Virus record (IMG/VR): IMGVR_UViG_3300029702_000330
Length of the DNA: 34,527 nt
Reading direction: 5' to 3' (one strand)
Source of the DNA: a virus
Taxonomy: Duplodnaviria; Heunggongvirae; Uroviricota; Caudoviricetes
Made by a program: the position numbers and the translations under genes. The notes beneath the pieces were generated by a model. The model was not told the origin of the DNA. It saw only the letters and a list, made by a program, of their open reading frames with translations, and did not search any database. Every line of letters starts with the position of its first letter. Position 1 is the first letter of the stretch. Of this stretch, positions 10,888 through 11,242 are shown piece after piece.

Positions 10888-11152
10888 ACTCAGGGCACGT
10901 TACCAGCTTCTAATTGATTAGACAACGCAGTGCAAGAAATGTCTATAAACTTCCGCTCCTCGCTCAAAGCGGACTAGAAGGTTAGCTTGTGTCGGACTTT
11001 GCGTATTAAAAGAAGTGCTGGTGGTGACTAGTGGTTGAGCCCCATTTCCACAGAAAAAATCAGAGAAACTATACCCAATAGTTGTATTGAATCACTGACG
11101 AGACAGCCTCATATTCATCAGGACTGGTGTACGTCCAATACAGGAGGTTGTG

Positions 11153-11242
11153 GTGCTGGTTCTCAAATGTGCGCTGGCTATTACGGCTGTAATGGCGATT
11201 TATTGTCTTGCTATTGTTCTTATGGATCACCTTTCTGATTGA
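11153..11242 (+). CDS. Candidate 29-aa hydrophobic peptide (type I toxin-like or small membrane protein)
   Basis: Perfect AGGAGG (11142-11147) 5 nt before GTG; encodes 'VLVLKCALAITAVMAIYCLAIVLMDHLSD', a single TM helix. Confidence 0.25.
   Translation: MLVLKCALAITAVMAIYCLAIVLMDHLSD

Follow-up and report, generated by a model that had tools for sequence, protein, structure and literature searches.

The hok/sok locus is among the best-studied toxin-antitoxin systems, yet its complete Qin-type form is preceded by a conserved gene that RefSeq leaves unannotated. Several groups of small membrane proteins resemble the product of this gene. The mRNAs of the type I toxins TisB, ZorO, DinQ, ShoB, Ibs and Ldr have long, structured 5' UTRs, and a small RNA is encoded close by in divergent or antisense orientation; ZorO is restricted to Escherichia and Shigella. 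MgtS, AcrZ, MgrB and PmrR are small single-pass inner-membrane modulators, which are chromosomal, stress-regulated and have known partners. Prophage morons such as HK97 gp15 encode membrane proteins for superinfection exclusion.

We analyzed a window of 34,527 nucleotides (IMG/VR record IMGVR_UViG_3300029702_000330). It is a lambdoid E. coli prophage of the Qin-like kind, as its content shows: DicF, cspA-type leaders, hokD, rem, ydfU and a DUF977 gene. The following features define the small gene and the frames that overlap it:

11142-11147, + strand: Shine-Dalgarno (SD) sequence AGGAGG, 5 nt ahead of the start codon GTG at 11153
11153-11242, + strand: small gene, 29 codons and TGA, for the predicted single-pass hydrophobic peptide MLVLKCALAITAVMAIYCLAIVLMDHLSD
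11035-11238, + strand: 67-aa TTG-initiated frame of the mechanical ORF track, an artefact (dN/dS 1.37 in all copies, 0.89 in the unbiased sample)
11069-11248, - strand: 59-aa ORF, hypothetical in phage HannyBb, a probable artefact (stops in 7 of 36 distinct variants; dN/dS 0.5)

Like Hok/Sok of plasmid R1 and hokD of Qin, this locus lies in an accessory region of a prophage and would encode a small membrane peptide of hydrophobic character, and it adjoins hok in the same orientation. Unlike Hok, the peptide has 29 aa as against about 50, lacks a periplasmic domain and has no similarity to Hok in sequence. With the short type I toxins, of which TisB, ZorO and DinQ have about the same size, it shares the size class and one hydrophobic helix flanked by short polar ends, and with ZorO the confinement to Escherichia and Shigella; it differs from them in an inferred leader of only ~30 nt, an SD that is not demonstrably sequestered, and an RNA partner that we did not find. 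The MgtS/AcrZ/MgrB/PmrR class is alike in length (<50 aa), single transmembrane (TM) helix, short charged tail, ordinary promoter (here a predicted one) and lack of an antitoxin, and unlike in that the small gene is borne by prophages and plasmids. Here, conservation of positions in both helix and tail suggests a specific partner. Finally, as with morons of the HK97 gp15 type, the gene lies in a lambdoid prophage beside variable defence cargo and has its own predicted sigma-70-like promoter, so that it should be expressed in the lysogen, but its product is much smaller and it has no terminator of its own. The 29-codon frame is very likely a genuine gene under a promoter of its own. The full reading, which we hold to be reasonably probable, is that this gene is transcribed autonomously, encodes a peptide that spans the inner membrane once, and is carried on a 156-bp cassette immediately upstream of hokD/sok in Qin-like prophages.

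The initial annotation had described a perfect SD followed at 5 nt by GTG and a 29-codon frame, and this description is confirmed by the coordinates and by conservation. Its single TM helix likewise holds as a prediction: the GRAVY value of MLVLKCALAITAVMAIYCLAIVLMDHLSD is 1.78, its best 19-residue window reaches 2.58, and one hydrophobic stretch of ~22 residues is followed by an acidic tail. In BL21(DE3) and REL606 the peptide is a variant, MLVLKCTLAIVAVMAIYCLVIVLMDHLSD, which we call the L001 type. The ORF closes at TGA 11240-11242 and contains GTG codons at 11150 and 11153; the mechanical ORF list opens it at the first, giving 30 aa, and the second gives 29 aa. We place the start at 11153 because GTG and ATG alternate there (ATG in two separate lineages, the L005 type and the pINV plasmids), whereas codon 11150 is GTC, TAT or ATC in many copies. 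The GGAG core of the SD is kept in nearly all of 36 upstream variants and is GGGG in two. AGGAGG occurs 14 times on the + strand of the window and never on the - strand; 8 of the 14 have a start codon 4-9 nt downstream, and several open long ORFs (up to 699 aa). Upstream, TGA at 11096-11098 shuts the frame in the window. This codon is a sense codon in some strains, and there gene callers extend the peptide in frame to ~57-97 aa (for example P0013 and P0009). These N-terminal extensions are not conserved.

Copies of the gene are narrowly distributed, to Escherichia and Shigella, and very common in E. coli and Shigella. At least 1708 of 5426 complete E. coli genomes (at least 31%) cover 80% or more of positions 11040-11270, mostly at 90-99% identity, and RefSeq PGAP consistently leaves the position of the small gene unannotated. 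A degenerate search pattern derived from 13 BLAST-sampled copies matches more than 120 IMG/VR prophage contigs. Among the 185,579 species representatives of GTDB, the pattern matches Escherichia albertii, E. ruysiae, Shigella flexneri and three short contigs in unrelated MAGs (Collinsella, Scatousia and Haemophilus), which are probably contamination. Furthermore, tblastn finds an intact 29-aa copy with 69% identity on 143 plasmids, almost all of them Shigella/EIEC pINV, and all sampled pINV-type plasmids carry the gene. The pINV copy (1598-1687 in L002; 90997-90908 on the - strand of CP037924) is situated between ospZ and icsP, at ~290-380 nt upstream of the latter. In the sampled plasmids the small gene is intact and is followed by a hok promoter, TTGGCG-18-TAGAAT, and a stretch of ~55-150 nt from the start of the hok leader, with no hok. 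This region is H-NS-silenced, and the icsP upstream region in which the copy resides has been heavily studied for H-NS/VirB control. A dRNA-seq data set for S. flexneri M90T (PMC7132871, Table S3), which covers one copy under one condition, lists no TSS at the predicted pINV small-gene promoter (~91026 on CP037924), and this negative result weighs most heavily against the reading that we favour. The same table has no TSS at the hok-promoter remnant (~90864); it has TSSs at 90709 and 90726, assigned to icsP, and at 91318. The last is a 'novel' TSS on the same strand as the pINV small ORF, 321 nt upstream of it (PMC7132871).

We examined whether the small frame is maintained as a coding sequence. 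The frame is open in all 119 recovered copies, which encode 25 distinct peptides of 28-35 aa. An open frame is weak evidence by itself, since just 2% of single substitutions in it create a stop; with 99 inferred changes it would stay open by chance in ~13% of cases (0.98^99). We counted synonymous and nonsynonymous changes along a minimum spanning tree of the distinct sequences. Over all copies the small frame has a dN/dS of 0.30, against 0.49-1.37 for the other five frames. In the BLAST-sampled copies, a set free of search-pattern bias, the value is 0.38 with a synonymous excess at p=2.8e-5, and the other two + strand frames give 0.58 and 0.89. Codons 2-18 reach 0.20 (p=9e-7), an estimate from pattern-selected copies in which the pattern itself fixes many first and second codon positions of this part. 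Codons 19-29 alone give 0.53 (p=0.075). The latter overlap the site expected for an UP element of the hok promoter, and DNA-level selection may thus account for part of their constraint. Among the recovered variants, I16-Y17-C18 and the terminal D never vary, and one lineage has an in-frame deletion of 3 nt. Conservation of the small frame exceeds chance, and the substitution pattern indicates purifying selection on the encoded protein.

These data bear on the possibility that the ORF is fortuitous and unexpressed, and that its conservation reflects the recent spread of a prophage segment together with DNA constraints from the hok promoter or a recombination flank. Such an origin would fit the 90-98% identity of most copies, the ~13% chance that the frame stays open, the consistent omission of the gene by RefSeq PGAP and the lack of a mapped TSS at the pINV copy. 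Against it stand the synonymous excess, which is specific to the small frame, the switching of GTG and ATG at exactly one position, the conserved SD and the in-frame deletion, and we regard it as very unlikely. The competing frames fare differently. The initial annotation took the 67-aa TTG frame for an artefact, and rightly so: its dN/dS is 0.89-1.37 and its start falls in DNA that is swapped out in several lineages. The 59-aa minus-strand ORF is probably an artefact as well.

Three further features concern transcription of the gene:

11087-11115, + strand: putative sigma-70 promoter, -35 TTGAAT (11087-11092), 17-nt spacer, -10 CATATT (11110-11115)
10948-11086, + strand: conserved upstream block, in most but not all copies, which contains the right inverted-repeat arm (10951-10974)
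11177-11196, + strand: 8-bp hairpin within the ORF with a U-rich stretch after it, resembling a terminator, of unproven significance

TTGAAT-17-CATATT is the top + strand site upstream of the small ORF (PWM score 9.3). In most lineages TTGxxx and (C/T)ATATT are kept at a 17-nt spacing despite nearly full divergence of the spacer, in which the window type and the L001 type agree at 7 of 17 positions; the -35 is degraded in two lineages. This survival of hexamers and spacing likewise argues against a fortuitous ORF. From the position of the promoter, we infer a TSS at ~11122-11123. Positions 11087-11242 form a cassette of 156 bp that holds the promoter, an inferred leader of 30 nt, the perfect SD, a GTG or ATG start and the ORF. 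Breakpoints of upstream replacements fall between 10945 and ~11085, and those downstream fall inside the hok leader (pINV) or 4-8 nt past the stop codon (L011 type). Because breakpoints on both sides spare it, the 156-bp unit is the part common to every context, which again would not be expected of a fortuitous frame. The block at 10948-11086 has been swapped for unrelated DNA in five lineages (L001, L012, L005, L074 and L083), and the small gene is therefore independent of it. Of the features of a moron, the cassette has a promoter of its own, in the predicted and conserved TTGAAT-17-CATATT; we found no terminator between its stop codon and the hok promoter.

A promoter-like site on the minus strand, GTGATT-16-TATAGT (11066-11095), overlaps the -35 of the small-gene promoter. 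Its TATAGT is also present in the L011 type and in pINV, and leftward transcription from this site could cross the conserved upstream block. We also considered the hairpin at 11177-11196 as an attenuator. The alignment is compatible with pairing in 97.5% of cells and contains one compensatory change from G-C to A-U, but 44 of 500 shuffles matched it, and we did not retain this candidate.

The small gene is followed directly by hok, for which we mapped these features:

11250-11278, + strand: hok promoter TTGGCG-17-TAGAAT, 8 nt past the small-gene stop (PWM score 12.5)
11285-11700, + strand: complete hokD-type hok/mok/sok locus (ORF list, Rfam and PWM scan; RefSeq calls it hokD in related genomes)
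11397-11609, + strand: mok
11454-11609, + strand: hok
11285-11459: match to the Rfam sok model (hok leader)
11440-11412, - strand: candidate Sok promoter (PWM score 8.8)
11678-11695: terminator of the hok locus

The 5' end of hok mRNA lies at ~11285, as deduced from the start of the Rfam match. In 103 of 113 copies (91%) hok lies downstream of the small gene, in 86 of these 103 at a spacing of exactly 212 nt. The other 10 of the 113 have no hok yet keep the cassette; in L011-type loci hok is gone and the cassette intact. Conversely, hokW of phage 933W and similar hok loci have no cassette.

We asked whether the ORF might serve hok in cis, as a translated uORF or a second promoter, such that read-through, translation or promoter occlusion tunes a 5'-extended hok mRNA and the peptide sequence matters little. 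The absence of a terminator between the stop at 11242 and the hok promoter at 11250-11278 would allow this, and the fixed spacing in hok-linked copies, the overlap of the last codons (which have the weaker coding signal) with a possible hok UP element, and the terminator-like hairpin inside the ORF all agree with it. Against a role indifferent to the peptide stand the low dN/dS of codons 2-18, pattern-selected though these copies are, and the invariant I-Y-C. Likewise, the cassette remains intact where hok is gone, in L011-type loci and on pINV, and hok loci such as hokW of 933W do without it. We give a purely cis-acting role little credence.

The initial annotation suggested that the ORF might be a second small toxin. 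Part of this suggestion stands, in that size, hydrophobicity and the hok neighbourhood are as expected; an antisense promoter, a complementary RNA, SD sequestration and covariation beyond controls were looked for and not found. In such an arrangement, the peptide would be a membrane-damaging type I toxin in a tandem module with hok/sok, and its translation would be restrained by a small RNA, antisense or trans-acting, or by an inhibitory fold of the mRNA. With 29 aa, strong hydrophobicity and a predicted TM helix, the peptide falls within the size and hydrophobicity limits used for type I toxins (<60 aa, predicted transmembrane helix). The gene adjoins hok and is co-inherited with it, and the weak GTG start predominates. 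Furthermore, in many variants RNAfold and RNAalifold predict pairing between the SD region (CAAUACAGGAGG) and the 3' end of the ORF (CCUUUCUGAUUG), and the 13-bp helix found by RNAalifold is compatible with 97% of alignment cells.

Controls gave this helix no significant support as a translation block. Occlusion of the SD did not exceed that in dinucleotide shuffles (p=0.25) or in synonymously recoded sequences (p=0.08), the signal was gone in a longer transcript, and the helix showed no covariation. A PWM scan, which could miss weak promoters, detected no conserved minus-strand promoter that would give an RNA over the translation start. Nearby minus-strand sites scored 7.4 and 5.8, were not conserved and were badly placed, whereas the same scan gave 8.8 at the Sok position. 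Elsewhere in the 34.5-kb window there was no complementarity beyond chance. PasA sRNAs, reported near Sok matches, were set aside, as they map to the holin/lysozyme region and not to this one. Moreover, copies with a perfect SD and promoter persist without hok/sok and without the upstream block, including those on pINV. A potent toxin with a sigma-70 promoter and a perfect SD but no antitoxin is unlikely to persist, yet the gene is kept without hok/sok; on all these grounds we rank a second RNA-controlled toxin as unlikely. The gene has the features by which bacterial small membrane proteins are recognized: no more than 50 aa, one TM helix, an SD, a start codon and protein-level constraint.

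The peptide had been proposed for comparison with type I toxin families, and no Pfam or NCBIfam toxin model matched it; at E<=10, Pfam (including Hok_Gef, PF01848) and NCBIfam returned chance hydrophobic matches only. PHROG and PADLOC gave no match for the peptide. Rfam scans at gathering thresholds and by E-value returned only chance matches in 10830-11300, the sok match being confined to 11285-11459. The initial annotation had also raised a degenerate N-terminal fragment of hok as a possible origin, and this idea did not survive comparison. Aligned locally, the peptide and Hok scored no better than the average shuffle (p=0.49), and when 10900-11284 was compared with 11285-11720 by blastn-short, only chance matches of 7-8 nt came up. 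Nor did the small ORF show the architecture of a hok locus: we found there neither a mok-like frame nor an antisense promoter of the Sok kind, nor a fold-back with support. The missing Hok_Gef match, the purifying selection and the predicted promoter of the gene itself point the same way.

A phmmer search of 1.84 billion representatives with the 30-aa form returned nine matches, eight of which are the same locus under varied gene-caller starts. Seven of these eight carry the peptide as their C-terminus and one, P0038, runs 11 residues past its stop; the ninth match, P0041, is an unrelated repetitive protein with 35% identity. Since the search recovered the same locus only, the peptide does not derive by truncation from the N-terminal part of a larger protein. 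By exact look-up, the peptide is named 'membrane protein', 'hypothetical protein' or 'conserved hypothetical protein' in some records of GenBank and UniRef (ACT39199.1 in REL606, ACT43394.1 in BL21(DE3), UniRef A0A0M1UIT1). Literature searches by peptide strings and protein accessions found no publication on the gene, and the terms 'upstream of' and 'small ORF' do not occur in a preprint on hok diversity (10.1101/2025.08.07.668861). By these comparisons, the small gene encodes an uncharacterized small single-pass membrane protein, predicted as such and outside any described family.

The surroundings of the cassette within the prophage are marked by these features:

4775-4826, - strand: DicF (Rfam)
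15014-15406 and 17915-18300, + strand: two cspA-type thermoregulator leaders (Rfam)
9011-10825, upstream of the small gene: cargo gene for a 604-aa protein with a GmrSD_N (DUF262) domain (PADLOC models NsnA and PD-T4-2_A)

The gene at 9011-10825 is likely an anti-phage defence gene, as judged from its domain and models. Elsewhere the same slot holds genes for SIR2, DUF2326, QueH, AAA ATPase, zeta toxin or DUF5677 proteins, some of them on the opposite strand. Because the cassette follows so many different genes, and some on the opposite strand, the small-gene region is not the 3' UTR of the gene upstream, an explanation that the initial annotation had named as one that would count against its proposal.

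The cargo gene of the window is bracketed by an inverted repeat, GTCCGCTTTG...CAAAGCGGAC, at 8694-8713 and 10951-10974. Both copies are found in ~22 of 45 listed IMG/VR loci, the left at -1211 to -5590 and the right fixed at -189/-174 (or -188) from the small ORF. In the Qin prophage of K-12 the same element occurs twice, inverted, around flxA (3982-4001 and 4970-4996 of L139). The inverted repeat may mark the boundaries of a hotspot of defence-cargo exchange.

Returning to an autonomous membrane-peptide gene as the reading that we favour, the cassette would sit on the conserved right flank of this hotspot. Host sigma-70 RNA polymerase would transcribe the gene in the lysogen from ~11122. Expression is probably low, as expected from the non-consensus -10 and from a start that is mostly GTG, and the transcript would probably run on into hok, since no terminator precedes the hok promoter. 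In the membrane, the Lys-bearing N-terminus is predicted to be cytoplasmic and the acidic tail (M-D/E-R/H-L/F-S-D) periplasmic. Because the I-Y-C of the helix is invariant and the acidic tail conserved, we propose that the peptide probably makes a specific contact in the membrane and works through it, as small membrane-protein modulators do, and not as an RNA-controlled killer. Phage exclusion, modulation of a host membrane protein and interplay with Hok are possible roles. A membrane effector at this position would bear on prophage-encoded defence or exclusion and on hokD expression.

A bolder proposal is that the peptide is a functional partner of Hok, either a second membrane toxin under different control or a membrane-level modulator or immunity factor for Hok, in a three-part module with hok and sok, or else a stand-alone phage-exclusion peptide; we consider this quite unlikely. 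Were the peptide a Hok partner, the third gene of a textbook toxin-antitoxin locus would have been overlooked in a third of E. coli genomes, and every Shigella virulence plasmid would keep its relic beside icsP.

Most mapping of E. coli small proteins has been done in K-12. The gene is present in the laboratory strains BL21(DE3) and REL606, and UTI89 and ATCC 8739 carry it too; the Qin prophage of K-12 (L139, MG1655 1642000-1650000) has neither the small gene nor the hok leader, and relBE there abuts hokD with a gap of 72 nt. Because relBE has replaced this stretch in K-12, small-protein surveys based on that strain would have missed the gene. K-12 Qin does have an annotated hydrophobic protein of 29 aa, YnfS, which adjoins cspF and is unrelated to the peptide described here.
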